Shown in pieces: positions 6,001-21,304 of a DNA stretch of 64,000 bases; the stretch's first letter is position 1, and each line of letters opens with the position of its first letter. The stretch covers positions 38,501 through 102,500 of the forward strand of contig JAJDCD010000023.1 of assembly GCA_029261035.1 (NCBI GenBank), written 5' to 3'. The position numbers and the translations under genes are program-made. The DNA comes from Candidatus Omnitrophota bacterium. Lineage in GTDB: Bacteria > Omnitrophota > Omnitrophia > Omnitrophales > JACROU01. Below the pieces are notes generated by a model. It searched no databases. It saw only the letters and a list, made by a program, of their open reading frames with translations, and had not been told where the DNA came from.

Positions 6001-8568
6001 ATGGTTTTTCCTGCCCCGAATGGAGGGAAAGTAGGTTTTCAAAAAACATTAGGTATGGGAAAAGTAGAAGTAATTACTTTAGAGATAACAAGAGAGTCAG
6101 AAGAGTTGGTTTTGCTATTTAAATATGAGGGAAAAAATAAGAATGGAATGGCTAAACTTTATTGGACAGGTCAGGAGTATGTAACAGGGCAGCAAAGACA
6201 GATGGAATTTGTGCGAACCAGTTACGAAAAGCTTGAAAGAGGGGATGAAGTAAGAATTCAAATAGAAGAGCATGAGTTTTTAATTAATAAAAGACATGGG
6301 TTTTTACAGGGAAGTTTTCCTACTCCTGATGGAAAAGAGATAGGAGAAATGTTGTTTCCATCTATGGGAGAAAATGTGGAGTATTTAGATTTTTTTCTAA
6401 TAAAAGAAGAAAGTACGATTTTACTTGAATTCCACTCACGTCAAAAAGGAAAAAAAGAAACGATTATTTCTAGACTTTATTGGAATGGAACAGAGTTTGA
6501 AAGTGATAAAGATATTGAGGTTGGAAAAATCAAAGAGGGGTTTGAATTTCTCTCAAGGGGAATACAGCAAAGGTTTAATGTTGGTCCCTTAAATGAATTG
6601 ATTTCTAAAGGATATGGGAAGCTTCAAGCTGATTTTCCCACCCCTGATGGCAATAAAGTAGGTAGGGTGAAGCCTATGAGCTTAGGACCGAATTTTAAAG
6701 AAATTAGTTTAGAAATATTATTAGAAGAAGGGCAAATAGTTTTGTTTTTTACTTATACAGGCGAAGGAGAAAAAGAGCAAAGGCAAGGAAAAATGTATTG
6801 GGTCCACGATAAGTATTTAACTGAAAAGGAGATGCAAAAACATCGATTAGCTGAAGCGGTTAAAGCGGTTTATAACGGAAGTTTAGATCAATATGAAGTT
6901 GAGGATGTAGTCCTTTATGTGAATAAATCAGTGGGACGACTTAACAGAAGCTTCCCAACTCCCGAAGATGGGGTCGTTGGTAAAATGAAAACAATCGGCA
7001 TAGGAAAGCCGAATGCAGAAGTGAAATTTACAGTTAAAAGAGATGTAAAAACTCAAAAGTTACAACTAGTCTTCAAGTACAGGAAAGAAGGAGAGGTGGG
7101 CTTTAGAGAGGGTCCTGTAATCTTAACTTGGAATGGAACAGAATATGAAACGCCCAAAGAGATAGAGTTGCGTTTAATTAGAGAGGGTTTCCAAACGATT
7201 CAGAATGGAAATCTGAAATCTGTAAGAGTAGGAGAGCTCAACGAATTAGTCTCAAAAGAATATGGAAAACTACAGGGAGATTTTCCTACTCCTGACGGAA
7301 ATAAGATTAAAAGAATAAAATCCTTACGGATGGGCCCTAAACATAGCTATATTGCTTTAGAAATTACCAAAGAAGAAGGTGGGATAGTTTTAATTTTTGA
7401 TTACATCTTGCATGGGACAGCGGAAATAAAAAAAGGGAAGCTTTATTGGATTGATGGCACTTATTTAACTGAAAAAGAGTTTCAAAAGCATAGATTAATT
7501 AAAGCGATTGATGACGTTAATAACGGAGCTCTTTCTTTTGCTGAAATAACAAAACTGGATTATTTTTTAAATTTTAATTATGGGGTTTTGAACGAGACAT
7601 TCCCAACTCCGATAGGAACGAAAATAGGAAAACAACAATCACTTGGAATAGGGGGTCTTCTGGAATCAGTGAAACTAATTGTAGAAAAGGAAATAAGGAC
7701 TCAAAGATTGTTGCTAAAGTTTATTTATAAACGGAAGGGAGAAGCTGATTATCATCCTGAACCCGTCATTTTGTTTTGGAATAAAAAAACAAACAAGTAT
7801 GAAAAATATGTTCGCGAAGTTCAACAAGATGTTTATGAATTTGATCCCAATGAGGAGTTTGAGGGAATGAGTTTGGGAACTCGGTTAGAACGTTACCCCA
7901 AACCAATTCAGGAGGCTTTAAGGCTTGTTAACTTTTTAGATCGAGAAAATATAAATTTAGATTTTTTAGGGCAATATGTGAAACAAATTAGAACGACTGT
8001 AGCGGATCCGTCTGTTTATCAAATTATGGATGTGGTTACGTTTAAAGATCGGATTCGAGATGAAGAGTCTTTGTTAAAGATGGTTCGTATGATTGAGGAT
8101 GGCGGAAAAATTGAAGTGGCTTATAGTGAAGAGGAGCGAGAAGAAGTTCGAGGTTTCTTGAAAAAAGGTGGCTTGCTTCATGGATCATTTAAACATTATT
8201 TCAGAGATGTTTTTGTCCCATACTCAGAATTAGGAAAATCGAATCTGTCTAATTTGATCAAGGTTGTGTTGGTTGATGAGAAGAATATGGGAAGATTGAA
8301 TCAGCTAGAAGAAGACTTTTTTAAGGTGGGTTATGAGAGTCGGTGGTTGGATTATATTCCTGGAATGACAAGCATGCTTTCCAATATCAGCATTGAGGCG
8401 GCTCGAATGAAACGAGAAGGAGTGCCAGATCAATTGGCCCAATATGTTCAAAGTTTTTATGAGACGGGAACAAGCTTCTCTCTTCAGGGAGGAGTCTTGT
8501 TTTTGGATGTGGTTGAAATGTTGAAGACGAGTATTGTAAGGGATCGAATGATTGCGAGGGCGGCGTAG
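34..8568 (+). CDS. Giant secreted tandem-repeat protein (2,844 aa); N-terminal signal peptide, ~400-aa N-domain shared with the 25701..30785 protein, 19 x ~140-aa repeats, unique ~250-aa C-terminal domain
   Basis: Uninterrupted 8.5-kb ORF. N-terminus MTMTQIKKPISIILALCFLFTLVPAESVYA is signal-peptide-like. The motifs FPTPDG (and variants FPSPDG/FPAPNG/FPTPEG) and YWNG recur 19 times at ~140-aa spacing. A terminator-like palindrome follows the stop codon. Confidence 0.85.
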   Translation: MTMTQIKKPISIILALCFLFTLVPAESVYAKHPPIYLSSVPAVPEEWASVKRFSPSKASMGRIYLLEDAHGYIEAQERVLDLLSFLEEKTQVELVGVEGSSEDFNLLLFRSFPNLEKKKSWVRNKVREGELSGADGAAILSNQPMKYFGIEDEQLYQKNLNRYFDVQQQKPNKQIEAFEEKLDKQLSSKLSTTLLEVLNLEERLLHQDQAPYEWMKQLCSYQEILQAPKKLSHIFSLIKRTENDENFHEPLPKLEPEIFLEIKDYFTELKQKLIRSEDEANLLKRRDQFLRLKQLRDLKLTRQEWENLNKDFDELREFFEIQRSYYQTAIKRERSFVKSALNQMESTKQKETILHVGGFHTQGLKEAFLNKNYEVVQITPKWKKERESTYQERMNLIASSKSSLKEPSLVGANLLRGRVEGDVLQDWLSHNNAVEWGVQLIFSAYRLRQHKEKKLFDLLDRLTNHLDSTTPRHEGVASAKNGGSVLKGTEKLMTNGYELTASLSEDEKVVGASLGVKFSEKKILIGRIRTGFRQIEEGRVERVEIGDVSLIVQKKTGRSNHSFPTPDGDRVRKSVNFIAYENLDVIELTIVKGVEGQITLEFSHQKKGEEPKVSKVLWNGKEYERVLNNKEKEKQALIKKIRKAYQQIKSGAAEVGVGDIEPLVNLKFGWLYRTFPTPDGGALKDKKPGFNGRNIKSMDLKLIAAENGEIIFELSYVTKLGETEKTIMYWKENSLLSEKDYHLNKIMNGFKDLKAGNERVLVGGIDFFVRKKQGVLSHLFPSPDGEPLGEGTSIRSGPDIKTLTLSLLKDKANQIFLELHYTKENDEEGVSTLVWHNGKYVLPIKLLDQKFRQGFSDIEAGGSKFDIGEVSPFFNKDYGVSRHTFPTPKGTVKRNSLVRLEKNLDRVELKLLKVDDGSLVLEFEYELKGGAKGSKKVFWNGSKYEADVEKAVRKVKEAYKKVYAGEQKVVIGDASLLVSKERAHLYRVFPMPDGNPRRGSRNIGMQLNVQEIALTVHRGENGHPTLEFLYKKDEEEKILKIYWNGTLFETEKERLINKIRAGFEQVKTQGQEVSIGDVSLLVSKTSGGLQKTFPTPDGGQIDKPKRFGISEDLELIELTIEKDAQSQNILLRFDARKVGETRWSKPVVLVWDGTKFTTDRTKNEVNKELVVQKIKNAFLELQKEKKSIDIGNVTQLVGSKVGYLYNIFPTPDGNKVGKPTTVGLGVNIESISLKIEKDEELVLIFTVKGKNKETKAVRVYWNGKNYEKEYSRFLRKVREGFRLISKSGTTVVELGDVSRIVNTQGGTVYKTFPTPDGATIGKNFSLGTGGKVQGIALTLRKEIKTGRILLEFNYTKIKTKNVLRTQTLYWNPKIKTYLPYVKETQQEVYEFNLEDEFDGASLGDQFDQKKFVIERIQKAYKQIADGKQKVDVGDVSALIDLKKGLFIPRFPAPDGSKKHGAQAVGIGHHVKRVLLTLLKENETLVFKFTYLKEGSSQYQETKLYWNGTNFLLTPKWTRVKIYNAFDAIKPGETISIGDVSSVTNKERGCLLKTFPLPNGGRLGKNQTILSQKNNDVISLKVIKETEELILEFSYSSKNDNKVRRTRIYWNGSAYELEQDWKIRRIKEAYKKLKEGEVKDIGDVSSVINIERGLFQSAFPTPDGRRIKKVYTAAIGADSKQVWMRVRKENGDLTLELDYVKEKEKGTQILYWNGKKFETDFERKIRNIQEGFQRVLEDKTSVFSVLNIDFLVNQKYGYFLRRFPTPNGRQIGNAKLPGFGLNVRNIQLDVIKEDSEMVLSFNYDKEGKDTKSTLKLYWDGHKYLSEEEKKGENNSKEVLIRKIRKGYEVLQKDEKQSIEIGDISLLVSMQRGKFRSFFPTPEGGKLKTMASLYTGVRLESLTLNLKREGEDIVLELSFKRQGDTSLKNIQLYWNGTEFEQFKGKRSKMNEKQDLLKRIADGLKKVRKQEEDTVDIGDVSSVMNMKFGMIAMVFPAPNGGKVGFQKTLGMGKVEVITLEITRESEELVLLFKYEGKNKNGMAKLYWTGQEYVTGQQRQMEFVRTSYEKLERGDEVRIQIEEHEFLINKRHGFLQGSFPTPDGKEIGEMLFPSMGENVEYLDFFLIKEESTILLEFHSRQKGKKETIISRLYWNGTEFESDKDIEVGKIKEGFEFLSRGIQQRFNVGPLNELISKGYGKLQADFPTPDGNKVGRVKPMSLGPNFKEISLEILLEEGQIVLFFTYTGEGEKEQRQGKMYWVHDKYLTEKEMQKHRLAEAVKAVYNGSLDQYEVEDVVLYVNKSVGRLNRSFPTPEDGVVGKMKTIGIGKPNAEVKFTVKRDVKTQKLQLVFKYRKEGEVGFREGPVILTWNGTEYETPKEIELRLIREGFQTIQNGNLKSVRVGELNELVSKEYGKLQGDFPTPDGNKIKRIKSLRMGPKHSYIALEITKEEGGIVLIFDYILHGTAEIKKGKLYWIDGTYLTEKEFQKHRLIKAIDDVNNGALSFAEITKLDYFLNFNYGVLNETFPTPIGTKIGKQQSLGIGGLLESVKLIVEKEIRTQRLLLKFIYKRKGEADYHPEPVILFWNKKTNKYEKYVREVQQDVYEFDPNEEFEGMSLGTRLERYPKPIQEALRLVNFLDRENINLDFLGQYVKQIRTTVADPSVYQIMDVVTFKDRIRDEESLLKMVRMIEDGGKIEVAYSEEEREEVRGFLKKGGLLHGSFKHYFRDVFVPYSELGKSNLSNLIKVVLVDEKNMGRLNQLEEDFFKVGYESRWLDYIPGMTSMLSNISIEAARMKREGVPDQLAQYVQSFYETGTSFSLQGGVLFLDVVEMLKTSIVRDRMIARAA
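1590..7800 (+). repeat. Array of 19 tandem ~140-aa protein-coding repeats (consensus landmarks IGDVS..LV...FPTPDG...L.L...LEF.Y.K......LYWNG..YE)
   Basis: Read directly from the translation. A higher-order duplication is visible: the block ending TQQEVYEFNLEDEFDGASLG (~nt 4180-4250) recurs as VQQDVYEFDPNEEFEGMSLG (~nt 7820-7880). Repeats 16-17 and 18-19 are near-duplicates of each other. Confidence 0.8.
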
Positions 8569-8602
8569 TGACTGTCACCAGGCTGCGTTCTCGCAGACCA
8601 TG

Positions 8603-8626
8603 GTGACTGTCACTACGTTTTTTGGC
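8603..8626 (+). terminator. Rho-independent terminator candidate after the giant gene (GTGACTGTCAC hairpin + T6)
   Basis: gtgactgtcac at 8603..8613 followed by tacgtttttt. A second copy of the palindrome overlaps the stop codon at 8568..8578, with a ctgcg-ttct-cgcag hairpin between the two. Confidence 0.5.
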
Positions 8627-8725: not shown

Positions 8726-8749
8726 GTGCCAGGTCTAAAGACCTGGCAC
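8726..8749. repeat. Family F hairpin (GTGCCAGG...CCTGGCAC), copy 1
   Basis: gtgccaggtct-aa-agacctggcac forms a perfect 11-bp stem. The same GTGCCAGG/CCTGGCAC core occurs at 54201..54252 and 61195..61235. Confidence 0.6.
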
Positions 8750-8769: not shown

Positions 8770-8827
8770 GGGGACACGCACTTTTGTCACAATTGCTCTC
8801 GCAATGGTTACAAAAGTTTATGTCCCC
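8770..8827. repeat. Family C imperfect-palindrome repeat (~58 bp), copy 1
   Basis: ggggacacgcacttttgtcacaattg...caatggttacaaaagtttatgtcccc. Near-identical copies lie at 35863..35919 (reverse), 45500..45559 and 60992..61048. Confidence 0.7.
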
Positions 8828-8847: not shown

Positions 8848-9879
8848 TTATACTATCTTCAGCACAATCTTTCCGAAGTTTTTTCTGTCTAGCATGTGTT
8901 GATGGGCTTCCTTTGCTGCTTCGAGTGGGAATACTTTATCGATGACGGGTTTGAAGGTTCCTTCTTCTACTTTTTTTATGACTTCGAGTAACTCTGAGAG
9001 ACCTCCCATATAATTTCCCATGATGGACTGTTGTTTCATGAATAAAAACCGAAGATCGATTTTAACTTCGGGGCCCGTGGTTGCTCCGCAAGTAACAAGA
9101 CGTCCTCTTTTTGATAGGGAAGCCATGCTTTCTTCCCATGTAGCAGGCCCTACGTGTTCGAAAACTACGTTCACGCCTTTTCCTTCAGTAATGTCTAAAA
9201 CTTTTTCTGATATTTTTTCTGTGGAGTAATTAATTGTATGATCTGCTCCGAGATCTGTGGCGAGTTTTAATTTTTCGTCATTTCCTGCTGTTGCGATAAC
9301 GTTTGCTCCAATAGACTTTGCAATTTGAATTGCCGCGATTCCAATTCCACTGCCCGCTGCTTGGATTAAAACGCTTTCGCTTTGAATTAATTTGGCTTGA
9401 GTCACAAGCATGTGCCATGAGGTGAGGAATGTAAGTGGAATCGAAGCCCACTCTTCGAAGGTGAGTTTATCTGAAATTGGAATAATGTTTCGTGCGGGAC
9501 ATTTAACCAATTCGGCATAGCCGCCGTCTCTTAGAAAGCCCATTATTTTGTAACTGTCGCACATACTGTCCCAACCGCTTGTGCATGAATCACAAGTACC
9601 GCAAGAAACTCCGGGAGCGATAAGAACTCGGTCGCCGGGTTTAATCCCTTCAACTTCAGCACCTACTTCTTCGACAATACCTGCAGAGTCACATCCTAAA
9701 ATATGAGGAAGAGGAATGGGAACGCCTGGCATGCCTAAGCGAGTCCAAATATCTAAATGATTTAAGGCACAAGCATGATTGCGGACGAGCACTTCCTTTT
9801 CGTTAATCGTTGGATCGTTTACGTCCCCGTATTGCATTACATCTACTTCACCGTGTTGATCAAAATAAACTGCTTTCAT
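8848..9879 (-). CDS. Zinc-binding alcohol dehydrogenase / medium-chain dehydrogenase-reductase family oxidoreductase
   Basis: 343 aa. N-terminus MKAVYFDQHGEVDV...VLVRNHACALNHLDIW is typical of the quinone oxidoreductase/ADH_zinc_N family. Rossmann-like AAGSGIGIAAIQIA motif. An AGGAG ribosome-binding site precedes the ATG. Confidence 0.8.
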   Translation of the reverse strand: MKAVYFDQHGEVDVMQYGDVNDPTINEKEVLVRNHACALNHLDIWTRLGMPGVPIPLPHILGCDSAGIVEEVGAEVEGIKPGDRVLIAPGVSCGTCDSCTSGWDSMCDSYKIMGFLRDGGYAELVKCPARNIIPISDKLTFEEWASIPLTFLTSWHMLVTQAKLIQSESVLIQAAGSGIGIAAIQIAKSIGANVIATAGNDEKLKLATDLGADHTINYSTEKISEKVLDITEGKGVNVVFEHVGPATWEESMASLSKRGRLVTCGATTGPEVKIDLRFLFMKQQSIMGNYMGGLSELLEVIKKVEEGTFKPVIDKVFPLEAAKEAHQHMLDRKNFGKIVLKIV

Positions 9880-10015
9880 GTTTTCTCCTTTGTTTATGGC
9901 TTATAGCTATTAGTCTTTAGCTTTTAGCAGAAACTTTTCTTTTTGTTATACTCCATTATCTTTTAAGGGGGCCAGGCCTTGGGGTCTGGCCCAAATACGG
10001 TCTTTTGTCATAAAA

Positions 10016-11371: not shown

Positions 11372-11722
11372 ATGAATGAAGCTGTACTGATATTTACTCT
11401 TATTTTCTCTGCTTTGATTGTAGGAACCTTACTGGGATTACATCTTTTATTGAGTCCAAAGAACCCTAACTCAGTAAAGTCCGCTCCTTTTGAGTGCGGA
11501 AAGGACCCAATTTCTGAGCCTAAAGGGCGATTATCGGTACGATTTTATATTGTTGCGATGCTTTTTCTTATTTTTGATATCGAACTTGTGTTTCTTTATC
11601 CCTGGGCTGTTTTGTTTAGAGATTTAGGGGTTGTTGGATTTTTGGACATGCTTGTCTTTATTGTTATTTTGATGACAGGCTTTATTTATGCCTGGAAAAA
11701 GGGAGCTTTAAAATGGAGCTAA
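11372..11722 (+). CDS. nuoA: NADH-quinone oxidoreductase subunit A
   Basis: 116 aa, 3 TM segments, FECG...P motif typical of NuoA/ND3. Confidence 0.9.
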   Translation: MNEAVLIFTLIFSALIVGTLLGLHLLLSPKNPNSVKSAPFECGKDPISEPKGRLSVRFYIVAMLFLIFDIELVFLYPWAVLFRDLGVVGFLDMLVFIVILMTGFIYAWKKGALKWS

Positions 11723-12237
11723 CTGCCCCACAAAAAGAAAATATTCAAAAAATTGAACACTCTAACTTGTTTACTCCTGGTTTTTTTAGCTCAAAGGTAT
11801 CTGAGGTTGTGGGTTGGGCAAGAAAGAATTCGATCTTTCAGTTTCCAATGGTAACGGCTTGTTGTGGAATGGAATACATGTCTGTTGCTTGTTCTCATTA
11901 TGATATCGATCGTTTTGGAGCGGGTTTTCCTCGTTTTAGTCCGCGTCAATCCGATGTTCTCTTTGTGGTTGGAACCATTAGTCATAAGATGGCGCCTGTG
12001 ATGAAACGTATTTATGAACAGATGACAGAACCTAAGTGGGTTGTTGCCTTTGGCGTGTGTACTTGTACCGGGGGTTTTTATGATAATTATGCAACGGTTC
12101 AGGGGATCGATACGATTATTCCTGTCGATGTGTATATCCCTGGATGTCCTCCAAGACCAGAGACTGTGATTGATGGACTTATTAAACTTCAAGAAAAAAT
12201 TGAACACTCTGGTTTCGAATCCAGACCTGGAAAGTAA
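11713..12237 (+). CDS. nuoB: NADH-quinone oxidoreductase subunit B
   Basis: CCGMEYM and GCPP Fe-S ligand motifs. Overlaps the nuoA stop codon. Confidence 0.92.
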   Translation: MELTAPQKENIQKIEHSNLFTPGFFSSKVSEVVGWARKNSIFQFPMVTACCGMEYMSVACSHYDIDRFGAGFPRFSPRQSDVLFVVGTISHKMAPVMKRIYEQMTEPKWVVAFGVCTCTGGFYDNYATVQGIDTIIPVDVYIPGCPPRPETVIDGLIKLQEKIEHSGFESRPGK

Positions 12238-12245
12238 TCTAAAAA

Positions 12246-12728
12246 ATGACTGATTTAATAGAAGTAATTCAAAATAAATTCCCAGATTTAGTCGAGTCTT
12301 CTCATAGCCAATGTGGCGACCAGACCGTTGTGCTCAAAAAAGAAGGTCTTTTAACGGTAATGAAGTACGTTCAACATGAGCCTTCTCTTCATTTCAATAT
12401 GTTGATGGATCTTACGGCTGTAGATTACTGGGCTCAACTTAGAAAACCTCGCTTTGATGTGGTTTATCATTTGTATTCAACAACAAAAAATCATCGATTG
12501 CGTATTAAAGTTCAAGTAAGTGAAAAAGAGTGTGAAGTAGATTCGTTAACTTCTTTTTGGCCATCCGCGAATTGGTTTGAAAGAGAAGTGTGGGATATGT
12601 TTGGCGTTAAATTTAAGGGCCATCCAAATATGAAACGTATTTTGATGTACGAAGAGTTTAAAGGGCATCCGTTGAGAAAAGATTATATGTATAACAAAAG
12701 ACAACCTCTTGTGGGGCCTGTGAATTAA
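12246..12728 (+). CDS. nuoC: NADH-quinone oxidoreductase subunit C
   Basis: EREVWDMFGVKFKGHPNMKRIL signature of NuoC/30-kDa subunit. Confidence 0.9.
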   Translation: MTDLIEVIQNKFPDLVESSHSQCGDQTVVLKKEGLLTVMKYVQHEPSLHFNMLMDLTAVDYWAQLRKPRFDVVYHLYSTTKNHRLRIKVQVSEKECEVDSLTSFWPSANWFEREVWDMFGVKFKGHPNMKRILMYEEFKGHPLRKDYMYNKRQPLVGPVN

Positions 12729-12763
12729 GTACGGAAGTCTGATAGTTATAGAAAAAGGAAAAA

Positions 12764-14137
12764 ATGAGCGAATATTCAAAATTAGATGTAACTCAAGAAA
12801 CGATTGATGCTGAGACGGAAGGGATGACGATCAATATGGGTCCTGCCCATCCCGCTATGCATGGTGTTGTCCGTCTGATTATGAATTTAGATGGGGAACG
12901 CATCCGTAAAGTGGATGTTGAGATTGGTTATTTGCATCGAGCGTTTGAAAAGTCGGCAGAGCAAGCCGGTTATCTGCAGGTGATTCCTTATACGGATCGT
13001 TTAAATTATGTGTCTCCACTGATTAATAATTTTGGTTATGCGAGTGCCGTTGAAAAACTGATGGGCATTGAAACTACAGAACGTTGCCAATTTATTCGTG
13101 TGATCATGAGTGAAATTTCTCGTGTTTCGGATCATTTAACTTGTGTAGGAGCTTCAGCGATGGAGTTGGGAGCTTTTACGGCATTTCTGTATTTAATGAA
13201 AGCTAGAGAATATTTGTACGAGCTTGTTGAAGAAGTTACAGGGGCGCGCCTCACAATTTCTTATGTGCGCATCGGAGGGGTTAAGGCAGATTTTCCAGAA
13301 GGTTTTAAGGGAAGAGCGCTTAATGCGATTAAAGAAGTACGAAAAGTTTTAAAAGAAACAAATCAGCTGTTAACGCGTAATCGAATTTTTATGGATCGTT
13401 TAGAAGGAATAGGTCTGATCTCTCAGGAAGATGCGATTGCTCATGGAATTACAGGGCCGTTTCTTCGTTCGACAGGTTGTGATTTTGATTTAAGAAAAGC
13501 GAGTCCTTATTGGGTGTACGACCGTATTGATTTTGATGTCCCAGTTGGAAGTCGCGGAGATAACTATGACCGTTACTTAGTCCGTTTAGAAGAAATGGAA
13601 CAAAGTATGCGTATTATTGAAAAAGCATTCGCATTGATGAAAGAAGGAAGTATTCGCGTAGATGCTCAAGGAAAAGAAATTCCTGCATCTTTGATGGTGG
13701 ACGAAGCCAAGATGGGAAACACAAAAGGTTTCTGGCAGTTCGAACCTCAGGTGGACCCTACGCTAGAAGGAACCGCGAAAAAAAATCAGAAAGCTATTTA
13801 TCCGGATGTTGAAGATAAGAAAGAATTCATGTTGCCGGCGAAAGAAAATACATACGGCAATATTGAAGGGCTCATGAATCATTTTAAATTGATCATGATT
13901 GGTCATGGTACGAGTCCTCCTAAAGGGGAAGTTTATTTTCCTGTTGAGGGAGGGAACGGAGAGCTTGGTTTTTATGTTGTGAGCGATGGGACGGATCGTC
14001 CTTATCGAGTGCGAGTGCATCCTCCTTGCTTTCCTATTATGTCGGCTCTTCCTAAGATGTTGGAAGGGGACATGGTGGCGGATGTGATTGCGACGTTTGG
14101 TTCGGTGAATATGATTGCGGGGGAGTTGGATAGGTAG
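12764..14137 (+). CDS. nuoD: NADH-quinone oxidoreductase subunit D
   Basis: NMGPAHPAMHGVVRL motif; 49-kDa subunit family. At 457 aa it is slightly long for this family. Confidence 0.9.
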   Translation: MSEYSKLDVTQETIDAETEGMTINMGPAHPAMHGVVRLIMNLDGERIRKVDVEIGYLHRAFEKSAEQAGYLQVIPYTDRLNYVSPLINNFGYASAVEKLMGIETTERCQFIRVIMSEISRVSDHLTCVGASAMELGAFTAFLYLMKAREYLYELVEEVTGARLTISYVRIGGVKADFPEGFKGRALNAIKEVRKVLKETNQLLTRNRIFMDRLEGIGLISQEDAIAHGITGPFLRSTGCDFDLRKASPYWVYDRIDFDVPVGSRGDNYDRYLVRLEEMEQSMRIIEKAFALMKEGSIRVDAQGKEIPASLMVDEAKMGNTKGFWQFEPQVDPTLEGTAKKNQKAIYPDVEDKKEFMLPAKENTYGNIEGLMNHFKLIMIGHGTSPPKGEVYFPVEGGNGELGFYVVSDGTDRPYRVRVHPPCFPIMSALPKMLEGDMVADVIATFGSVNMIAGELDR

Positions 14138-14163
14138 ATGTGGGGTTTGAAAGTTGCGTCGTC

Positions 14164-14259
14164 GGAATTATATTTCCCCGGCGCTCAGACAGCACAAAAG
14201 TGACTGTCACCTGGGGTGACCGTCACTTTTGTGAACTCGCGGCGGGGAAATATAATTCC
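14164..14259. mobile_element. MITE-like palindromic element, family B copy 1 (conserved core CCGGCGCTCAGACAGCACAAAA...TTTTGTGAACTCGCGGCGG with 16-bp perfect inverted flanks)
   Basis: Flanks ggaattatatttcccc / ggggaaatataattcc are exact reverse complements. The core is shared with 35270..35353 and 44890..44970. The element sits inside the nuoD-nuoE spacer. Confidence 0.7.
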
Positions 14260-14338
14260 TCCTCCTAGAGAACCAAACGTCTCGTTTTTTATTGGTTTAG
14301 GGCGAGGTGCTTCGCGCAATATGTTTTGCTAATAGCTA

Positions 14339-14410
14339 GTGACTGTCACTTTTGCTTAGTTGAAAATAGTGGAAGAGATTGGCGGTGACAGTCACTGAAG
14401 TGACAGTCAC
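14339..14410 (+). repeat. Family A palindrome array (GTGACTGTCAC ... GTGACAGTCAC tgaa GTGACAGTCAC) immediately upstream of nuoE
   Basis: Three copies of the 11-bp palindrome. The same tripartite unit recurs at 16245..16313 upstream of nuoG. The array ends 27 nt before the nuoE ATG. Confidence 0.75.
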
Positions 14411-14437
14411 CTAAAAAGCTATAGACAAAGGAATATA

Positions 14438-14902
14438 ATGGAAATACCTGAAGAGTTAAAGAAGAAGTGGGATGAGGCTGTGGCGCGGTATGAGGAGAAG
14501 AGGGCTGCTTTGCTTCCTGTGTTGAGATTAAGCCAAGATCATTTTGGGTATATTTCTGCAGAGGTGGAAGAGGCTGTTGCTCATTATATGGGGACGACAC
14601 CTGTTCATATTCGGGAAGTGGTTACTTTTTATGAGCTTTTTCATACGAAGCCTGTGGGTAAGAACAATATTCAATTCTGCCATACGCTTGCTTGTAACTT
14701 GAATGGTTGTGAGCCGTTGATTAAACAGCTGAAAGAAAAGATTGGAATTAAAGAAGGGGAGACCTCTTCCGATGGGAAGTATTCTTTTTCTAGAGCAGAG
14801 TGTTTAGGGGCTTGTGAGATGGCTCCAATGATGAAAATCAACAAAGACATTTATGGTCCGTTGGATAAAGATAAACTAAACGAGATTATTGAGAACCTCT
14901 AA
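14438..14902 (+). CDS. nuoE: NADH-quinone oxidoreductase subunit E (2Fe-2S)
   Basis: Thioredoxin-like [2Fe-2S] NuoE pattern (C..LAC...GC...C). An AAGGA ribosome-binding site precedes the start. Confidence 0.9.
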   Translation: MEIPEELKKKWDEAVARYEEKRAALLPVLRLSQDHFGYISAEVEEAVAHYMGTTPVHIREVVTFYELFHTKPVGKNNIQFCHTLACNLNGCEPLIKQLKEKIGIKEGETSSDGKYSFSRAECLGACEMAPMMKINKDIYGPLDKDKLNEIIENL

Positions 14903-14912
14903 GTTTTAATGG

Positions 14913-14937
14913 GGGACTGTCCCTTCGGGACTGTCCC
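14913..14937. repeat. Tandem GGGACTGTCCC-ttc-GGGACTGTCCC palindromes in the nuoE-nuoF spacer (variant of family A)
   Basis: Two copies of an 11-bp palindrome of the same GNGACTGTCNC form. Confidence 0.6.
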
Positions 14938-14966
14938 AGACTAAGTCTAGAAGGCAACTATTAATT

Positions 14967-16244
14967 ATGACGGAAAAATTAATTACAAAATATTTAGAAC
15001 TTACGGATGCGAATAAAATAGATGTGTTTGAATCTAAGGACGGCTATAGCCGTATCCAAAAAGTCTTAAAAGAATTAAAGCCAGAAGAAGTGGTTGATGA
15101 AGTTAAAAAATCAAACCTTCGAGGGTTGGGTGGAGCTGGTTTCTCTACTGGGATGAAGTGGAGCTTTATTCCTAAGGATGGAAAGAAACCTGTTTATCTT
15201 GTTTGTAATTGTGATGAGGCTGAGCCGGGCACTTTTAAAGACAGACATATTGTTACATCGACACCTCATTTATTGTTAGAGGGGATGATGATTGCTGCTT
15301 TTGCTGTTAATGCACATAAAGCTTACATATTTATTCGGGGTGAGTACGAACGTCCGTACGAACGTCTGGCAAAAGCGGTTGAAGAAGCTTACGCAAAAGG
15401 GTATTTAGGAAAAAATATTTTTGGTAGTGGTTATGATTTGGACATTGTTGTGCATCAAGGTGCTGGCGCTTATATTTGCGGAGAAGAATCGGCATTACTT
15501 GAAGCTCTTGAAGGAAAAAAAGGTTGGCCCAGATTAAAACCTCCTTTCCCTGCCGTTGTTGGGTTGTTTGGCTGCCCTACGGTGATCAACAATGTTGAGA
15601 CTTTATCGTATTTGCCTTTAGTGATGCAAGGTGGGGCAGATTGGTTTTCGAAATTAGCCGGAGAAGAAAAGTCTGGAGGAACGCGTCTTTTTTGTGTGAG
15701 TGGACACGTCAATAAACCTGGAATTTATGAGCTCCCTGTTGATACAACGTTAAGATCTTTGATTTATGATCATGCCGGAGGAATCCGAGGGGGTAAGCAA
15801 TTAAAAGCAGTTGTCCCTGGGGGTATTTCTGCCCCGATATTAAGTGCTGAAGAAATTGATGTCAAAATGGATTTCGATTCTTTGAGAGCTGCTGGAACCA
15901 TGGCGGGATCTGGGGGTGTGATGGTGATGGATGAAGATACCAATATGGTAGAAGCGTTGATGGTTGCTTCTCGTTTTTTTGCTCACGAATCTTGCGGCCA
16001 GTGTTCTCCTTGTCGTGAAGGAAGTGCCTGGCTTTATAAAATTGTGAAACGTATTAATGAAGGTGAAGGCCGTGTTGAGGACTTAGATAGTATGTTGTCT
16101 ATTGCAGGTAATATTTCTGGAACGACTATTTGTGCGTTAGGGGATGCTGCAGCAATGCCTGTCACAAGTTATATTAAAAAATTTAGAAGTGATTTTGAAG
16201 ATTATATTAGTGACTGTCACTTGCCTGTGGAAACACAGAGCTAA
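14967..16244 (+). CDS. nuoF: NADH-quinone oxidoreductase subunit F (NADH/FMN binding, 4Fe-4S)
   Basis: GLGGAGFSTGMKW, ESCGQCSPCREG motifs. A GTGACTGTCAC palindrome (16210..16220) lies within the last codons. Confidence 0.93.
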   Translation: MTEKLITKYLELTDANKIDVFESKDGYSRIQKVLKELKPEEVVDEVKKSNLRGLGGAGFSTGMKWSFIPKDGKKPVYLVCNCDEAEPGTFKDRHIVTSTPHLLLEGMMIAAFAVNAHKAYIFIRGEYERPYERLAKAVEEAYAKGYLGKNIFGSGYDLDIVVHQGAGAYICGEESALLEALEGKKGWPRLKPPFPAVVGLFGCPTVINNVETLSYLPLVMQGGADWFSKLAGEEKSGGTRLFCVSGHVNKPGIYELPVDTTLRSLIYDHAGGIRGGKQLKAVVPGGISAPILSAEEIDVKMDFDSLRAAGTMAGSGGVMVMDEDTNMVEALMVASRFFAHESCGQCSPCREGSAWLYKIVKRINEGEGRVEDLDSMLSIAGNISGTTICALGDAAAMPVTSYIKKFRSDFEDYISDCHLPVETQS

Positions 16245-16313
16245 GTGACTGTCACTATTAGGGCATAGAAAAAATTAGAGAAAGACGGTGACAGTCACTA
16301 AAGTGACAGTCAC
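16245..16313 (+). repeat. Family A palindrome array upstream of nuoG
   Basis: gtgactgtcac...ggtgacagtcac-taaa-gtgacagtcac-ctaaaagcc. Its architecture is collinear with 14339..14410. Confidence 0.75.
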
Positions 16314-16347
16314 CTAAAAGCCAATAGCTATAGGAGTTCGAAGAGTT

Positions 16348-17976
16348 ATGCCAAAAGTTACCATTGATGGTCATGAGATAGAGGTTTCTCAGGGAACAAC
16401 AATCATGCAAGCCACAAAACAGTTAGCAATTGAAGTGCCTTATTATTGTTGGCACCCAGGGCTTTCTGTTGCGGGAAATTGTCGTATGTGTCTTGTGGAT
16501 GTTGAAGGTCCTCCAAAGCCTCAAATTGCGTGTTACACCCAGGTTACTGAGGGAATGGTAGTCCATACGCAGTCTGAGAAGGCGAAGAAAGCACGTAAAG
16601 GAACTTTGGAGTTTTTGCTTTCGAATCATCCTTTGGATTGTCCCGTATGTGACCAAGCTGGAGAGTGTGACCTACAAAATTTTTATATGGATCACGGGCA
16701 ATATGATTCTCGATTTGATGAACAAAAACACAAAAAGAAAAAAGCTCAGCCCGTAGGGGAAAACGTGATGTTGGATCAAGAGCGCTGTGTTCTTTGTTCT
16801 CGCTGTGTTCGGTTTTGTGATGAAATTACAGGTACCGGAGAACTGGGTATTGTGAATCGAGGAAGTCATGAAGAGATTACCGTGTTTCCTGGCAAAGAGG
16901 TCAATAATGCTTACTCAGGTAATGTTGTTGATATTTGTCCTGTCGGGGCTTTAACGGATCGTGATTTTCGTTTTAAATGTCGTGTTTGGTATCTTTCCAG
17001 TCAAGACTCGGTATGTCCGGGGTGTTCTCAAGGTTGTAACATTCGTATTGATTCTAATTTATCTCGACCTCAGCATGGAGAGGGTGAGCGAGTGATGCGT
17101 TTAAAGCCAAGAGAAAACTTGAACGTGAATGATTACTGGATGTGTGACGAGGGTCGTTATAACTATAATTTTATTGATCGTAATCGTATTCAAACAGCTT
17201 CTCGAGTTAAAGAAGGGGTTGTTGAAGAAATTTTATTTGAGGATGCAGTTGATTCTTTGGCAAGTGTTTTAGGAGATGCAGTTAGAGAGCAGAGACATGG
17301 ACGTATCGGGGTTCTTGTTTCAACGCAGTTGACCAACGAAGATCTTTTCTTTGTTAAAAAGTTCTTCAAAACTAATCTGGGGATGGATGCAGTAGAATCT
17401 CGTTTTTCATTTCCTGAAGGAAGTAGTGATGACTTTTTGATTAAAGCAGATAAAAGCCCAAATACAGCAGGGGCACAAGCTTTAGAAGTAATTGCTTCTG
17501 GAACGTATCAATCTGGGGAAGATCTAATTGATAAAACGATTGCAGGAGAGTTTGATGTTTTAATTTCTTTCGGAGTCGATATTGATGGGTTGCTAGGAAA
17601 AGAAAAATTAGATGCGATTCTTGAGAAAGTAACATTACTTGCTTATGTTGGCAGTAATCACAATGAAACATCTAAAAAAGCACAGTTGGTTATTCCGAGT
17701 ACGGTTTATGCAGAAAAAGATGGAACCTTTACCAATGTTCATGGAAGGGTTCAGCGTATTTGGCCTGCATTTCCTCCTTTAGGACAAGCTAGACCCGAAT
17801 GGCAGATTATTTGTGACCTTTCAGAAAAGACAGGTTTCTCTGTGTCTGCAGATGATGCGGAATCTATTTTTAGTGAAATCACACAAACAGTTTCTTCTTT
17901 TCAAGGGTTGAGTTATGAAAAACTAGGAAAAGAAGGAAGTCTATTGAGCACAGTTAAAGAAACTGTAGAGAAATAG
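16348..17976 (+). CDS. nuoG: NADH-quinone oxidoreductase subunit G (short form)
   Basis: N-terminal 2Fe-2S CWHPGLSVAGNCRMCLV, 4Fe-4S cysteine clusters, molybdopterin-like domain. At 542 aa it is shorter than enterobacterial NuoG. Confidence 0.9.
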   Translation: MPKVTIDGHEIEVSQGTTIMQATKQLAIEVPYYCWHPGLSVAGNCRMCLVDVEGPPKPQIACYTQVTEGMVVHTQSEKAKKARKGTLEFLLSNHPLDCPVCDQAGECDLQNFYMDHGQYDSRFDEQKHKKKKAQPVGENVMLDQERCVLCSRCVRFCDEITGTGELGIVNRGSHEEITVFPGKEVNNAYSGNVVDICPVGALTDRDFRFKCRVWYLSSQDSVCPGCSQGCNIRIDSNLSRPQHGEGERVMRLKPRENLNVNDYWMCDEGRYNYNFIDRNRIQTASRVKEGVVEEILFEDAVDSLASVLGDAVREQRHGRIGVLVSTQLTNEDLFFVKKFFKTNLGMDAVESRFSFPEGSSDDFLIKADKSPNTAGAQALEVIASGTYQSGEDLIDKTIAGEFDVLISFGVDIDGLLGKEKLDAILEKVTLLAYVGSNHNETSKKAQLVIPSTVYAEKDGTFTNVHGRVQRIWPAFPPLGQARPEWQIICDLSEKTGFSVSADDAESIFSEITQTVSSFQGLSYEKLGKEGSLLSTVKETVEK

Positions 17977-17988
17977 TTAGAGGAACGT

Positions 17989-19080
17989 ATGAGTGTCGTA
18001 TTTATCCAATCAACATTACAACTTGTAGCCGTCTTCGCTTTTTTTATGGGAGTTCTGTCTTTGGCAGGGCTTCTAACTTGGGTTGAGAGAAAGCAAAGTG
18101 CCGTTATGCAAGATCGTATTGGAGCTAACCGAGCGGAGATTTTTGGATTTCGTTTTTTTGGTTTATTTCATATTATTGCAGATGCGATTAAGATGTTAAC
18201 CAAAGAGAGCTTTATTCCCGCAAAAGCAGATAAGTTTTTATATCAGCTTGCACCCATTATTTCTGTTTTTTTTGCCTTGATTACTTTTGCAGCGATTCCT
18301 TTCGGCAATGATCTGAAATTTGGAGAGTATGTCGTTCCTCTTCAAGGGCTTGATTTCAATGTGGGTCTTCTCTTTATTTTTGCGATGTTATCTATCGCGG
18401 TCTATGGAGTTATATTGGCCGGCTTTTCTTCGCAAAGTAACTTTTCTTTTTTAGGAGGTTTACGAGCAACCTCTCAGTTACTTGCTTACGAAATGGCCAT
18501 GGGAATTTCGATTATAGGCTTGGTTATGTGTTATGGATCTTTGAATTTAAATGAATTGGTTCATTCCCAGGGGGATTATTTGTGGGGTTGGTTACCAAAG
18601 TGGGGATTTTTTTTACAGCCTTTAGGCTTTATTATTTTTCTTATTGCAGGGATTGCAGAAAGTAAGCGAGTTCCTTTTGATATTCCAGAAGGAGAGTCTG
18701 AAATTGTAGGGTACTTTGTGGAATACAGTGGAATGCGATTCGGCTTATTTTTCTTAACAGATTTCTTGGAAACAATTTTAATTTCTTGTTTGGCGGCAGT
18801 TCTTTTTTTTGGCGGCTGGCAGGTTCCAGGGCTTTTTGAGGACGGTTTTCATTTTTGGAATGGGGTTGTCTGGAATTTACCTTCATTTGTAGTTACAATC
18901 ATTGGTGTTTTTGCTTTTATTTTTAAAATTGCTTTCTTTTGTTGGTTTTTAATGACGATTCGTTGGACATTGCCTCGATTCCGTTATGATCAATTGATGC
19001 ATTTGGGATGGAAAATTCTATTTCCACTCTCTATTGCAAATATTCTTATTACAGGAACCGTCATTCTTTTATTAAGCTAA
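17989..19080 (+). CDS. nuoH: NADH-quinone oxidoreductase subunit H
   Basis: 8-TM ND1 family protein with the conserved EGESE..GY..EYSG motif. Confidence 0.92.
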   Translation: MSVVFIQSTLQLVAVFAFFMGVLSLAGLLTWVERKQSAVMQDRIGANRAEIFGFRFFGLFHIIADAIKMLTKESFIPAKADKFLYQLAPIISVFFALITFAAIPFGNDLKFGEYVVPLQGLDFNVGLLFIFAMLSIAVYGVILAGFSSQSNFSFLGGLRATSQLLAYEMAMGISIIGLVMCYGSLNLNELVHSQGDYLWGWLPKWGFFLQPLGFIIFLIAGIAESKRVPFDIPEGESEIVGYFVEYSGMRFGLFFLTDFLETILISCLAAVLFFGGWQVPGLFEDGFHFWNGVVWNLPSFVVTIIGVFAFIFKIAFFCWFLMTIRWTLPRFRYDQLMHLGWKILFPLSIANILITGTVILLLS

Positions 19081-19117
19081 ATTAGCGCTAAAGAGAAAGT
19101 GTTAGACAGAGGACGTT

Positions 19118-19678
19118 ATGGCAACAATACAAGTTGAACGAAAAAAAATGAATTTGTTGGAGCGGATATATCTTCCGGAAATTATCCGAGGGTTTAGGAT
19201 TACAACATTTCACTTCTTTAGGAATCTTTTATTTCATCTGTTTCGAGCATTTGGATTTAAAAATTTCAAAGGTGCAGTTACGTTCCAATATCCAGAAGAA
19301 CAAAGGCCTTTGTCTGACCGTTTAAGAACGCGTCATCGTCTCATGCAAAGGGAAGATGGGTCTCCTCGTTGTGTGGCTTGTATGATGTGCGAAACCGTAT
19401 GTCCTGCTAAGTGTATCTACATTGAAGCTGCAGAACATCCAGATCCGAACATTGAAAAGATTCCTGCGAGTTTTGATATTGATTTAGGAAAATGTGTGTA
19501 TTGTGGTTTTTGTGTTGAAGCTTGTCCTGAAGATGCGATTCGTATGGATACTAAAATTTTAGATATCGCGTCATTAACGAGAGGCGGACTTTATTACACA
19601 ATGGAAGAACTTCTCCACCCAGAACAGCATGGCGCTAAAATAGAAGAAGCACGTAATAAGGTTCTCCCACCAAAGTAG
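19118..19678 (+). CDS. nuoI: NADH-quinone oxidoreductase subunit I (2x4Fe-4S)
   Basis: Two ferredoxin-type cysteine motifs, CVACMMCETVCP and CVYCGFCVEACP. Confidence 0.92.
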   Translation: MATIQVERKKMNLLERIYLPEIIRGFRITTFHFFRNLLFHLFRAFGFKNFKGAVTFQYPEEQRPLSDRLRTRHRLMQREDGSPRCVACMMCETVCPAKCIYIEAAEHPDPNIEKIPASFDIDLGKCVYCGFCVEACPEDAIRMDTKILDIASLTRGGLYYTMEELLHPEQHGAKIEEARNKVLPPK

Positions 19679-19880: not shown

Positions 19881-21299
19881 TTAGAAAAGGCTTGTTGCAG
19901 CTTGCTGACATAAGTGAATAAATGGACCCGGAACAACTCCCAAGATAACTACGAAACCAACCGTTAAATAAAGAGAAATTTGAGTGGATAGAGGAATGTT
20001 AATAGGAGAAGTGTCTTTGGGTTTTTCAAGAAACATTTTTCCAACAATAGAAAGATAGTAATAAGCGCTTAAGATAGCCATAAAAATTCCAATCACAGCT
20101 AACCATAAAAAACCTTCATTAACAGCGCTGTACAGCACAAGTAGTTTTGCAACAAAGCCACTGGTGGGTGGGATGCCTGTTAAAGACAATAGAGAAACAA
20201 AAAGACATGTCGCAAGCATTGGAGACTTTTCTTTTAAGCCTTCATATTCGATGACACGATCATTTTCGGAATGATTTGCAAGTAATGAAAGCACAAAAAA
20301 AGCAGCTAAGTTTGTTGCGATTAAACTAAAGAGATAAAAAAGTACAAATCCTACTCCAATAGCATCGGAAGCTAAAAACCCCATTAGAATAAAGCCAGCA
20401 TGAGACATGCTTGAGAATCCAAACAACCTCTTAATATTTTTCTGTGGAATGGCTGCAAAGTTTGCGTAAACCAATGTAGCAGCGATGATGACCGCAAAAA
20501 TAATAGAAATCTGATTTTGGATTGGCAAAAAGATTTCATAGAAGATTCTCAAAAAAATTGTTATAGCGGCTGTTTTTGAAGCAATAGAAAAGAAGGCGGT
20601 AACAGGTGTTGGCGAACCTTCGTAAACATCTGGAGCCCAAACTTGAAAAGGAACAATGGCCATCTTAAATGTTAGAGAAATAAAGATAAAAAGAAAACCT
20701 ACAATGAGCAAAGTTTGATCGGATCCGCTAGAGAGCAAAGCATTTTTAATCGTTAGGATGTCTAAGCTAGCAGAACCTCCATAAATTAAACTCATCCCTA
20801 AGAGCCCAAAAGCAGTAGAGATAGCTCCAAATATTAAGTATTTGATACCTGCTTCAATCGATGCTCGTGCATGCTTTAGGTAAGAGGTCATGATATAACT
20901 GGAAAAAGTAATAATTTCGAGGCCAATAAAGATGAGTAAGAGGTTGGTGCTGGAGACACCGAAGCTCATGCCGATAATGGCGGCAATGAGAAGAAGATAA
21001 AACTCTCCTTGTCCGCCTACTAGTTTCGTTGCGTAGGTACGAATCATTAGAGATAGAAAAAAACCAATAATGAGAAATAAAACTTTTGCCAATTTAGAAA
21101 ATTCATCTTGAACATACATTCCTTCAAACAGGGATCCGGATTCGTTCCAAAAGAAAATTTGAGCAACTAAAGCTAAAAGAAAACCCAAAGCGGTTAGTAT
21201 GCCCAGAAGAGATCTTTTATTTTTAGACAGAAGTAAATCTGAAAATAGAACAATAAATAAGGTGGCAATGAGAAATATTTCAGTAATCATTAAAAACAT
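19881..21299 (-). CDS. nuoN: NADH-quinone oxidoreductase subunit N
   Basis: 472 aa, ~14 TM segments, ND2/NuoN antiporter-like family. Confidence 0.88.
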   Translation of the reverse strand: MFLMITEIFLIATLFIVLFSDLLLSKNKRSLLGILTALGFLLALVAQIFFWNESGSLFEGMYVQDEFSKLAKVLFLIIGFFLSLMIRTYATKLVGGQGEFYLLLIAAIIGMSFGVSSTNLLLIFIGLEIITFSSYIMTSYLKHARASIEAGIKYLIFGAISTAFGLLGMSLIYGGSASLDILTIKNALLSSGSDQTLLIVGFLFIFISLTFKMAIVPFQVWAPDVYEGSPTPVTAFFSIASKTAAITIFLRIFYEIFLPIQNQISIIFAVIIAATLVYANFAAIPQKNIKRLFGFSSMSHAGFILMGFLASDAIGVGFVLFYLFSLIATNLAAFFVLSLLANHSENDRVIEYEGLKEKSPMLATCLFVSLLSLTGIPPTSGFVAKLLVLYSAVNEGFLWLAVIGIFMAILSAYYYLSIVGKMFLEKPKDTSPINIPLSTQISLYLTVGFVVILGVVPGPFIHLCQQAATSLF

Positions 21300-21304
21300 A
21301 ATGC

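Follow-up and report, generated by a model that had tools for sequence, protein, structure and literature searches.

The bacterial DNA analyzed here (a stretch of 64,000 nucleotides, referred to below as the window) contains three same-strand (+) copies of a repeat, at positions 14164-14259, 35268-35355, and 44887-44973. An invariant, imperfectly palindromic core, which comprises 22 + 19 nt in the part common to all three copies and 24 + 24 nt in copies 2 and 3, is enclosed in each copy by arms that are exact reverse complements of each other and that are unrelated in sequence between copies. This three-copy pattern is real and statistically beyond chance. From three copies in one genome we infer, tentatively, that the core was recently copied, probably read as a folded single strand, and that the arms were made locally by template switching. 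A layout that is conserved inside and locus specific but symmetric outside is unusual, and the definitions of the described bacterial repeat families do not cover it.

An invariant core within copy-specific arms

Each core half occurs exactly three times in the window, without a mismatch and always on the + strand: the 5' half, CCGGCGCTCAGACAGCACAAAA, starts at 14178, 35285, and 44904, and the 3' half, TTTTGTGAACTCGCGGCGG, starts at 14227, 35320, and 44938. The expectation for either half in shuffled sequence was 0.00 to 0.01 occurrences, and a search that tolerated up to 7 mismatches in 24 positions revealed no further or decayed copy of the core in the window. Copies 2 and 3 share extra core bases, two on the 5' side and five on the 3' side. 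Core identity was 100%, both across the 48 nt that copies 2 and 3 have in common and across the 41 nt that they share with copy 1, with no substitution across 89 aligned positions, whereas the arms, the apex, and the further flanks were unrelated between copies.

Copy 1 (14164-14259, 96 nt) begins with the copy-specific left arm GGAATTATATTTCC (14164-14177), which pairs perfectly with the right arm GGAAATATAATTCC (14246-14259). Its 5' core half occupies 14178-14199 and its 3' core half occupies 14227-14245. The apex between them (14200-14226) consists of two GTGACNGTCAC motifs (14200-14210 and 14216-14226) that form a further hairpin, and it stands where copies 2 and 3 have an apex of 5 to 6 nt and the adjacent AT...GCGAT. 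In copy 2 (35268-35355, 88 nt), the 24-nt core halves CCGGCGCTCAGACAGCACAAAAAT (35285-35308) and GCGATTTTTGTGAACTCGCGGCGG (35315-35338) flank the apex TGTGAT (35309-35314), which is unrelated to the apex AACCC (44928-44932) of copy 3 (44887-44973, 87 nt), whose 24-nt core halves CCGGCGCTCAGACAGCACAAAAAT and GCGATTTTTGTGAACTCGCGGCGG lie at 44904-44927 and 44933-44956. Counting the CCG/CGG pairs, the arms are 20 bp long in both copy 2 and copy 3, which have cores of 54 or 53 nt, and 17 bp long in copy 1. Copy 3 has an additional outer helix (44874-44987), in which GCGATAG (44874-44880) pairs with CTATCGC (44981-44987) beyond a 6 × 7 internal loop. All of these features are on the + strand.

The copy-specific part of the arms (GGAATTATATTTCC in copy 1, GCGACCTGGAAAGGTTC in copy 2, and GTAGAAAAACAGTTTCT in copy 3) is 14 to 17 bp long, without a mismatch and without a G·T pair. 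Every one of the 48 variable arm pairs is Watson-Crick. When the three copies were aligned, 31 of 31 pairs were Watson-Crick in every copy; the variable outer pairs differed on both sides in 13 of 14 cases and on one side in none, and no G·U pair was present. An unpaired remnant between arm and core was seen in none of the three copies. These counts bear out the earlier note on this DNA, which had described three copies with a shared core and self-complementary flanks particular to each copy, as well as a palindrome in copy 1 in place of the short center. The exact complementarity of the arms also stood, but in copies 2 and 3 the arms run 2 to 3 bp further out than had been described.

All copies are predicted to fold in the same way, whether as RNA or as DNA and on either strand, with folding z-scores between -8 and -13. 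Starting from the outside, the fold consists of the outer stem with CCG:CGG, a G·G mismatch, CGC:GCG, a 3-nt bulge (TCA), GA:TC, a 3 × 3 internal loop (CAG·AAC), the helix CACAAAA(AT):(AT)TTTTGTG, and a variable tip. Taken as inverted repeats, the core halves pair at about 17 of 22 positions. The arms are palindromes at the level of DNA, with no G·U pairs and with both strands folding alike.

Copy 3 was matched base for base by independent Logan assemblies of two runs, SRR15505518 and SRR15505516, and the 5' part of copy 1 is present in another Logan contig. Therefore, the repeat structures are not assembly artifacts. The suggestion that a Logan contig ending within copy 1 marks a repeat-induced assembly break was dropped, as the retrieved contigs are short (1.1 to 4.9 kb) and several of them stop at or near hairpins.

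A shared geometry downstream of copies 2 and 3

A second perfect hairpin follows copy 2 and copy 3 on the + strand, in both cases after a spacer of exactly 33 nt. The one after copy 2 (35389-35423) has 15-bp arms and the center CATCGAGTA, and the one after copy 3 (45007-45040) has 13-bp arms and the center CGTCGAGTA. The arms of these second hairpins are mutually unrelated, and their centers have C(A/G)TCGAGTA at the same offset. Both spacers are G/T-rich, and their identity at 15 of 33 positions is no better than composition allows. Copy 2 and its second hairpin are possibly part of a composite unit.

A weak hairpin on the + strand (14271-14302; AACCAA, a 15-nt loop starting with ACGTC, and TTGGTT) lies 11 nt downstream of copy 1, starting at offset +12. 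It overlaps the 11-mer TTGGTTTAGGG, which has just two exact occurrences in the window, one 32 nt past the end of copy 1 (offset +33) and the other at 35424, directly 3' of the second hairpin of copy 2. The link of the weak hairpin and of TTGGTTTAGGG with the repeat is uncertain. Two other candidates for shared downstream features were rejected: TTAGGG is not a common tail after the hairpins, as the window shows no enrichment of this hexamer, and no paralogy was found between the small open reading frames (ORFs) downstream of copies 2 and 3.

Copies 2 and 3 keep this geometry despite the turnover of sequence, a feature that is best explained by selection on a structured module, either RNA or single-stranded DNA. 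The three loci would then be paralogs of a two-hairpin unit of about 155 nt, which we consider unlikely. A partner might bind the core and the center of the second hairpin, with stems that need only pair, and this too is rather doubtful. It is similarly improbable that the stems were turned over under pairing selection, possibly via template switching, with cores kept identical by constraint or gene conversion. Consistent with such a module, 13 outer pairs and one inner pair covary with pairing at 100%, the asymmetric internal loops are invariant, as expected of a protein-binding site, and every copy has the orientation of the gene downstream of it and is probably transcribed. However, G·U pairs account for none of the 48 variable pairs, and both strands fold almost equally well. 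Furthermore, the contrast between the randomized arms and a core without a substitution in 89 positions, including helical positions that would tolerate covariation, is too sharp for this explanation. The proposal in the earlier note that the outer helix is a covarying RNA structure fits the geometry of copies 2 and 3 but not the lack of G·U pairs or the combination of an identical core with unrelated arms.

Genomic setting and distribution

The window is part of a bacterial chromosome of about 39% GC that carries the nuo operon, leuCD, and fab genes. A phage origin, considered on account of a giant ORF and a MazG-like ORF, was rejected in view of the nuo operon, the housekeeping genes, and the lack of phage similarity. 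Copy 1 is in the nuoD-nuoE spacer within nuoABCD-EFGHI, 26 nt past the nuoD stop codon. Copy 2 is 18 nt past the stop of the MazG-like ORF, which encodes 103 amino acids, and upstream of leuCD-type aconitase genes. Copy 2 had previously been placed directly after the stop of a MazG-like gene; the position is confirmed with an offset of 18 nt, but the MazG label is below threshold, with a Pfam match of 18.7 bits versus a cut-off of 27. Copy 3 lies between the divergent queD (-) and thiamine-binding-protein (+) genes. The unrelatedness of these contexts (between cistrons, 3' of a gene, and in a divergent promoter region) is a further argument against a selected module. GC skew is positive in the region of the three copies, which share one strand. 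The protein collection contained none of the small ORFs called across the element. The other genes of the window have housekeeping roles. The earlier observation that no transposase gene is adjacent extends to the whole window, in which none of about 55 genes encodes a transposase, integrase, or nuclease.

The best named homologs of NuoD and LeuC are in Candidatus Omnitrophica/Omnitrophota metagenome-assembled genomes, and the exact proteins of the window were found only in the NCBI record of the source and in two Logan runs (SRR15505516 and SRR15505518). NuoD is the sole member of its cluster, and no relative above 81% NuoD identity was present in the protein collection. Among the genomes in the collections, a 2.17-Mb JGI contig is closest (NuoD 81% and LeuC 88% identical), with synteny over the nuo region and over the interval from nuoN to the fab genes; NuoD of a second relative is 79% identical. 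The nuoD-nuoE spacer is 300 nt long here, 206 nt in the 81% relative, in which it is filled with that genome's own GAGTTAAG repeats, and 16 nt in the 79% relative, in which a ribosome-binding site directly follows the nuoD stop codon. The stop of the MazG-like ORF is separated from a small, conserved ORF on the minus strand by 289 nt here versus 112 nt in the relative, and the excess of 177 nt is the block with copy 2, the spacer, and the second hairpin. In the interval between queD and the thiamine-binding-protein gene, the relative carries a NUDIX gene. Thus, judging from spacer sizes and gene content at the same places in relatives, all three copies lie in lineage-specific intergenic DNA. 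No palindrome was visible at the syntenic positions of the relatives, whose intergenic DNA is too distant to align and hence offers no true empty site, and the Logan contigs from two runs recovered in the search for empty sites were identical to the window.

The core is absent from the 2.17-Mb syntenic relative. A core 19-mer gave two matches in a collection with one genome per species, both of them chance matches in unrelated sequence without the 3' half, and a core 20-mer gave three matches in JGI metagenomes, all of them chance matches in coding sequence. Nothing relevant was found in viral contigs, plasmids, or phages. A covariance model built from the three copies scored 93 to 101 bits on them (92.6, 100.7, and 98.6 bits for copies 1, 2, and 3, respectively) and at most 23 bits elsewhere in the window, on generic hairpins; it found nothing in 34 kb from two relatives (L003 and L012). 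No Rfam family matched at the gathering threshold anywhere in the window, and in E-value mode only generic models of miRNA-precursor hairpins were reported, far under their thresholds. In the data searched here, the element is known from one genome only, and the repeat is lineage restricted and dispersed. The absence of the core from the syntenic relative and from every collection scanned, together with the lack of a matching Rfam family, also counts against a selected module.

Comparison with described repeat families

In behavior the repeat is most like REP/BIME sequences, given its intergenic location, its hairpins in operon transcripts, and an irregular hairpin that would suit recognition as a folded single strand. 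Shared with the REP/BIME/REPIN group are short, dispersed, intergenic imperfect palindromes, often in operon spacers and at 3' ends, and stable mRNA hairpins. The irregular hairpin of REPs is recognized as single-stranded DNA by an enzyme encoded elsewhere, the RAYT Y1 transposases. In REPs the whole palindrome, 20 to 40 bp with a GTAG or CGTC tag, is the conserved unit (PMC3733652). In contrast, the outermost 14 to 17 bp of the repeat are locus specific, and the conserved part amounts to 41 to 48 nt plus the apex, itself variable between copies, within a whole of 87 to 96 nt. The REP tetranucleotides are inconsistent and could be due to chance, with GTAG at the start of copy 3, CGTC just ahead of copy 1, and neither of them at copy 2. 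There are three copies and no RAYT gene within the 64-kb window.

MITEs are usually 100 to 400 bp long, carry terminal inverted repeats that are conserved at the true ends of the element, and are flanked by direct target-site duplications. The ends of the palindromes described here are copy specific, and only the internal core halves are conserved. The sequence adjoining the core is repeated in inverted rather than direct orientation, no direct repeat lies outside the arms, and the repeat is under the usual size range. The description of the repeat as MITE-like in the earlier note is therefore not supported. As for an autonomous IS with matching ends, there is no transposase and no other match to a core half within the window. 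Bacterial MITEs, such as the Correia elements and Coxiella QMITE1/2, are small, noncoding, repeated sequences with a long stem-loop fold (PMC5896051), and the likeness of the repeat to them lies in this fold and in core halves that are imperfect inverted repeats.

The only trait in common with IS200/IS605-derived elements is the absence of direct duplication. The repeat has one hairpin rather than two subterminal hairpins, and the core is preceded by TTTCC, GGTTC, and TTTCT in the three copies, which gives no fixed 5' target of the IS200/IS605 type. attC sites consist of an outer stem, an unpaired center with extrahelical bases, an inner stem, and a variable tip, and they are read by shape on one strand while their sequence varies. 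The repeat has the same architecture of outer stem, inner stem, and variable terminal structure. However, the outer boxes RYYYAAC / GTTRRRY that are conserved in attC sites are absent here, where it is the outermost helix that varies. The ends are CCGGCGC...GCGGCGG, the copies do not form a cassette array but are 10 to 21 kb apart amid housekeeping genes, and no integrase is encoded in the window.

Origin of the core and the arms

Another family in the window, GGGGACA...TGTCCCC, behaves like an ordinary REP-type repeat: it is 57 nt long and has conserved ends, imperfect stems, copies in both orientations, and a mean identity of 84%. With this value as a yardstick of drift, the 100% identical core stands out, and its identity amid unrelated arms, apexes, and flanks argues that it was recently copied alone. 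Only the core would then be actively copied between loci. Its conserved asymmetries may be the mark of a site that is read in folded single-strand form, and the reader protein would be encoded elsewhere in the genome, as with the hairpins of HUH-type or structure-specific recombinases. No candidate enzyme for movement of the core was found in the window.

The arms could have formed locally, after the core arrived, by template switching during replication. The core hairpin of the nascent strand would fold back, and the polymerase would briefly copy the adjoining flank in reverse complement. One such fold-back event would yield a perfect stem continuous with the terminal helix of the core itself, and the same process may work on other hairpins of the genome. 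Template switching (quasipalindrome correction) is known to generate reverse-complement copies of adjacent sequence, and thereby perfect Watson-Crick stems in one step and apparent multibase compensatory changes (PMC8794818, PMC7202029). The difference from the present case is that it has been described as sporadic mutations in rRNA, miRNA, and reporter genes. We know of no description of template switching as a regular companion of a dispersed repeat.

Fold-back copying is favored because all 48 variable pairs are Watson-Crick, there is no one-sided change, and no remnant separates arm from core. Neither insertion into a loop nor compensation at the RNA level predicts arms with these properties. 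Template switching also accounts for the additional helix around copy 3 and for the outer arms of the GTGCCAGG...CCTGGCAC family, in which a conserved inner palindrome has 0, 5, or 8 bp of copy-specific, perfect outer arms. A dispersed core with locally templated arms is ranked first because template switching explains all three of these observations. This reading is further supported by the approximately 8-fold enrichment of perfect hairpins in the window (nine short-looped hairpins with stems of 10 bp or more versus about 1.2 expected), the near absence of G·T pairs from all long hairpins of the window, the lineage-specific sites, and the location of all copies on one strand where the GC skew is positive. 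Against it, events of 14 to 17 nt in three of three copies are much to ask of a sporadic mutation process. Template switching also leaves unexplained the equal 20-bp arms, the 33-nt spacing, and the similar centers of the second hairpins in copies 2 and 3, as well as the wholly different apexes of 5 to 6 nt between otherwise identical cores.

The enriched hairpins, several of which have centers of 0 to 2 nt, could also be targets for insertion. It is conceivable, although unlikely, that the core is a tiny nonautonomous element inserted at the dyad of preexisting palindromes or hairpins and that the arms are the halves of the older palindrome. The involvement of a structure-specific transposase or recombinase that puts the core at the tip of extruded hairpins is likewise improbable. 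The nested layout, with the GTGACNGTCAC hairpin at the tip of copy 1 and with copy 3 inside a further outer helix, is consistent with such insertion, and there are precedents in IS elements that insert into REP sequences (IS1397/ISKpn1 and the IS110-family ISPpu9/ISPa11; PMC1525189, PMC12288879) and in group IIC introns at terminator stem-loops (PMC1702495). In these systems the insert is flanked by the halves of a palindrome or adjoins a stem-loop. However, these are autonomous elements of 1 to 2 kb or introns, with one conserved repeat family or terminators as targets, whereas the insert here is about 54 to 76 nt, the supposed targets are unrelated in sequence, and none of the three copies has a loop remnant, although the perfect hairpins of the window mostly have loops of 1 to 8 nt.

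The earlier note had suggested insertion into terminator-type hairpins in particular. The arms do not resemble terminators. The sequences 3' of the arms (TCCTCC, TTAAGT, and TTAGGG) contain no T run, and a terminator scan made no call on the elements. The positions of the copies do not fit either: the operon junction occupied by copy 1 measures only 16 nt in one relative, a separate terminator-like hairpin follows copy 2 at a distance of 33 nt, and the genes on the two sides of copy 3 diverge. In addition, the equal arm lengths and downstream geometry of copies 2 and 3 would be unlikely for independent older hairpins, and no palindrome stands at the syntenic positions of the relatives, although they are too distant to provide true empty sites.

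A very improbable alternative is that the arms are a payload, with the core serving as the handle for a processing enzyme that releases a 17- to 20-bp duplex as a guide-like small RNA, the copies together forming a dispersed guide store without an array. The sole observation that suggests this is a perfect duplex of 17 to 20 bp beside an invariant asymmetric platform. The arms match nothing else in the window at up to 3 mismatches, a search of 2.9 million viral contigs gave no exact match to the arms of copies 2 and 3, and no Argonaute or nuclease gene is nearby.

More than one of these readings could hold at once, as a selected helix might be maintained by template switching, and we reserve about a fifth of the probability for explanations beyond those weighed here.

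If transcribed, as part of the nuo operon mRNA, a 3' untranslated region, or a 5' leader, the hairpin would be very stable (-40 to -62 kcal/mol). As a side effect, a stable transcript hairpin might act as a barrier to exonucleases or as a site of double-stranded-RNA processing.

Implications

The perfect copy-specific arms may even be a regular product or a requirement of the dispersal of the element, although we regard this as quite unlikely. Two forms of such dispersal are possible. Hairpin-primed copying might duplicate the target flank at each insertion in inverted rather than direct orientation, or an enzyme might place the core precisely at the dyad of any perfect palindrome, whatever the sequence of that palindrome. 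Either form, if true, would be a signature of transposition that has not been described for bacterial repeats.

REPs and MITEs are normally recognized by conserved ends and direct target duplications. An element that is conserved inside and has locus-specific, symmetric ends would be missed by standard repeat finders. Such an element would point to structure-directed insertion or to template switching as a routine builder of long, seed-centered hairpins. If the template-switch reading is true, the repeat would be a bacterial case of long stems with apparently massive covariation that arose without selection at the RNA level, and it would call for caution in covariation-based RNA discovery. The repeat also illustrates how compact operon junctions in Omnitrophota-like genomes fill with lineage-specific hairpin DNA.

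Other repeats and motifs in the window

The motif TTGTGAA was considered as a Rex- or CRP-type operator and rejected, as it is only a half-site and the two halves are everted. Several other repeat families are present in the window. One of them, CCCTCTCC...GGAGAGGGTTAGGG, includes the hairpin at 33908-33934 (center CCG·A·CGG), which had been a candidate for an "empty" target and was set aside once its membership in this family was recognized.

Organization of the nuo genes and neighboring open reading frames

The nuo genes are arranged in two convergent blocks, with nuoA to nuoI on the plus strand (11372-19678) and nuoJ to nuoN on the minus strand (19881-25487), and the same two-block convergent arrangement is found in both relatives, the syntenic relative and the second, whose NuoD proteins are 81% and 79% identical, respectively, to that of the window. 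Cumulative GC skew rises from position 1 to approximately 54 kb and falls thereafter. The turn, at about 54000-56000, could be a replication landmark, or it could merely mark the switch to minus-strand genes.

An open reading frame of 1694 amino acids (25701-30785), which had no match in Pfam or NCBIfam, lies between nuoJ and a flavin-reductase gene. Because the syntenic relative has only approximately 360 nt at this position (L013, a retrieved stretch of its DNA with local coordinates), the locus represents a lineage-specific insertion of approximately 5 kb. The giant open reading frame at 34-8568, which is cut by the window start and encodes at least 2844 amino acids, contains internal repeats spaced at approximately 310 and approximately 650 nt. 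It had no confident Pfam domain; the syntenic counterpart in the relative encodes 3907 amino acids with multiple Pkinase matches.

A minus-strand open reading frame of 69 amino acids (35539-35748) is conserved with the relative at the DNA level (alignment A7) and had no family match. This reading frame is probably a genuine small gene, whereas the overlapping plus-strand open reading frame of 83 amino acids (35434-35685) looks spurious.

A near-palindromic motif in intergenic regions

The near-palindrome GTGAC(T/A/C)GTCAC occurs at 11 sites in the window versus 0.19 matches expected, with both strands counted. All 11 are intergenic, located 3' of the giant gene, in the nuoD-nuoE spacer, and in the nuoF-nuoG spacer (8568-8578, 8603-8613, 14200-14226, 14339-14349, 14385-14410, 16210-16220, 16245-16255, and 16288-16313). 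The motif may serve a nuo regulator as its operator, or it may be one more small repeat. A 59-nt module carrying two tandem motifs is present upstream of both nuoE (14374-14432) and nuoG (16277-16335), with 83% identity between the two. In both relatives nuoF overlaps nuoG, and thus the DNA of the nuoF-nuoG spacer in the window is lineage specific.

Additional hairpin repeats

Other families of hairpin repeats were observed in the window. The first is a REP-like 57-nt family, GGGGACA...CTTTTG...CAAAAG...TGTCCCC, whose four copies (8770-8827, 35863-35919, 45500-45559, and 60992-61048) occur in both orientations with a mean identity of 84% and have imperfect stems. In the second, an inverted GTGCCAGG pair forms the basis of hairpins (8726-8749, 54200-54253, and 61194-61236); the sequence on either side of the motif, inner as well as outer, is perfectly complementary and differs from copy to copy, a layout reminiscent of uptake-signal pairs within terminators. 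The hairpin at 61194-61236 is a perfect palindrome of 43 nt with a 1-nt center. The third family consists of CC(C/T)TCTCC-loop-GGAGAGGG followed by TTAGGGTGAGG (33908-33946, 52912-52948, 52960-52998, 53823-53859, and 61262-61301), and 33908-33934 is nested within an imperfect inverted repeat of 31 nt (33861-33891/33956-33986).

Post hoc inspection of the invariant-core hairpin repeat revealed that the variable arms of copies 1 (14164-14177; GGAATTA followed by TATTTCC) and 3 (44890-44904; GAAAAAC-A-GTTTCTC) are themselves near-palindromic, with 6 of 7 internal pairs each. Therefore, the left and right arms of these copies are also near-direct repeats. In the arm of copy 2 only ACCT...AGGT is self-complementary. 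By eye, copy 1 alone has an outward-facing sigma-70-like promoter pattern (14227-14254), formed by TTGTGA of the core and, 16 nt downstream of it, TATAAT of the right arm; neither copy 2 nor copy 3 has such a -10 hexamer in its arms.

The NUDIX gene found between queD and the thiamine-binding-protein gene in the relative (L013 18272-18873) is missing at this position in the window (44839-45116). The window (45071-45090) and L013 share a hairpin, TGTCATCCCCG..., just 5' of the thiamine-binding-protein gene. This hairpin is a member of a GTCAT(T/C)CCCG...CGGGAATGAC repeat, another of which is at 53690-53716. The nuo spacers and the MazG-leuC spacer of the relative contain a different hairpin repeat of approximately 100 nt (9855-9986, 12070-12174, and 16808-16909 in the retrieved stretch L003; about 9600-9660 in L013). 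Its conserved sequences are TGTCATTGCGAGG...CCTCGCAATGACA at the outer ends and GCCGTGGCAATC on the inside, an ordinary, MITE-like layout.
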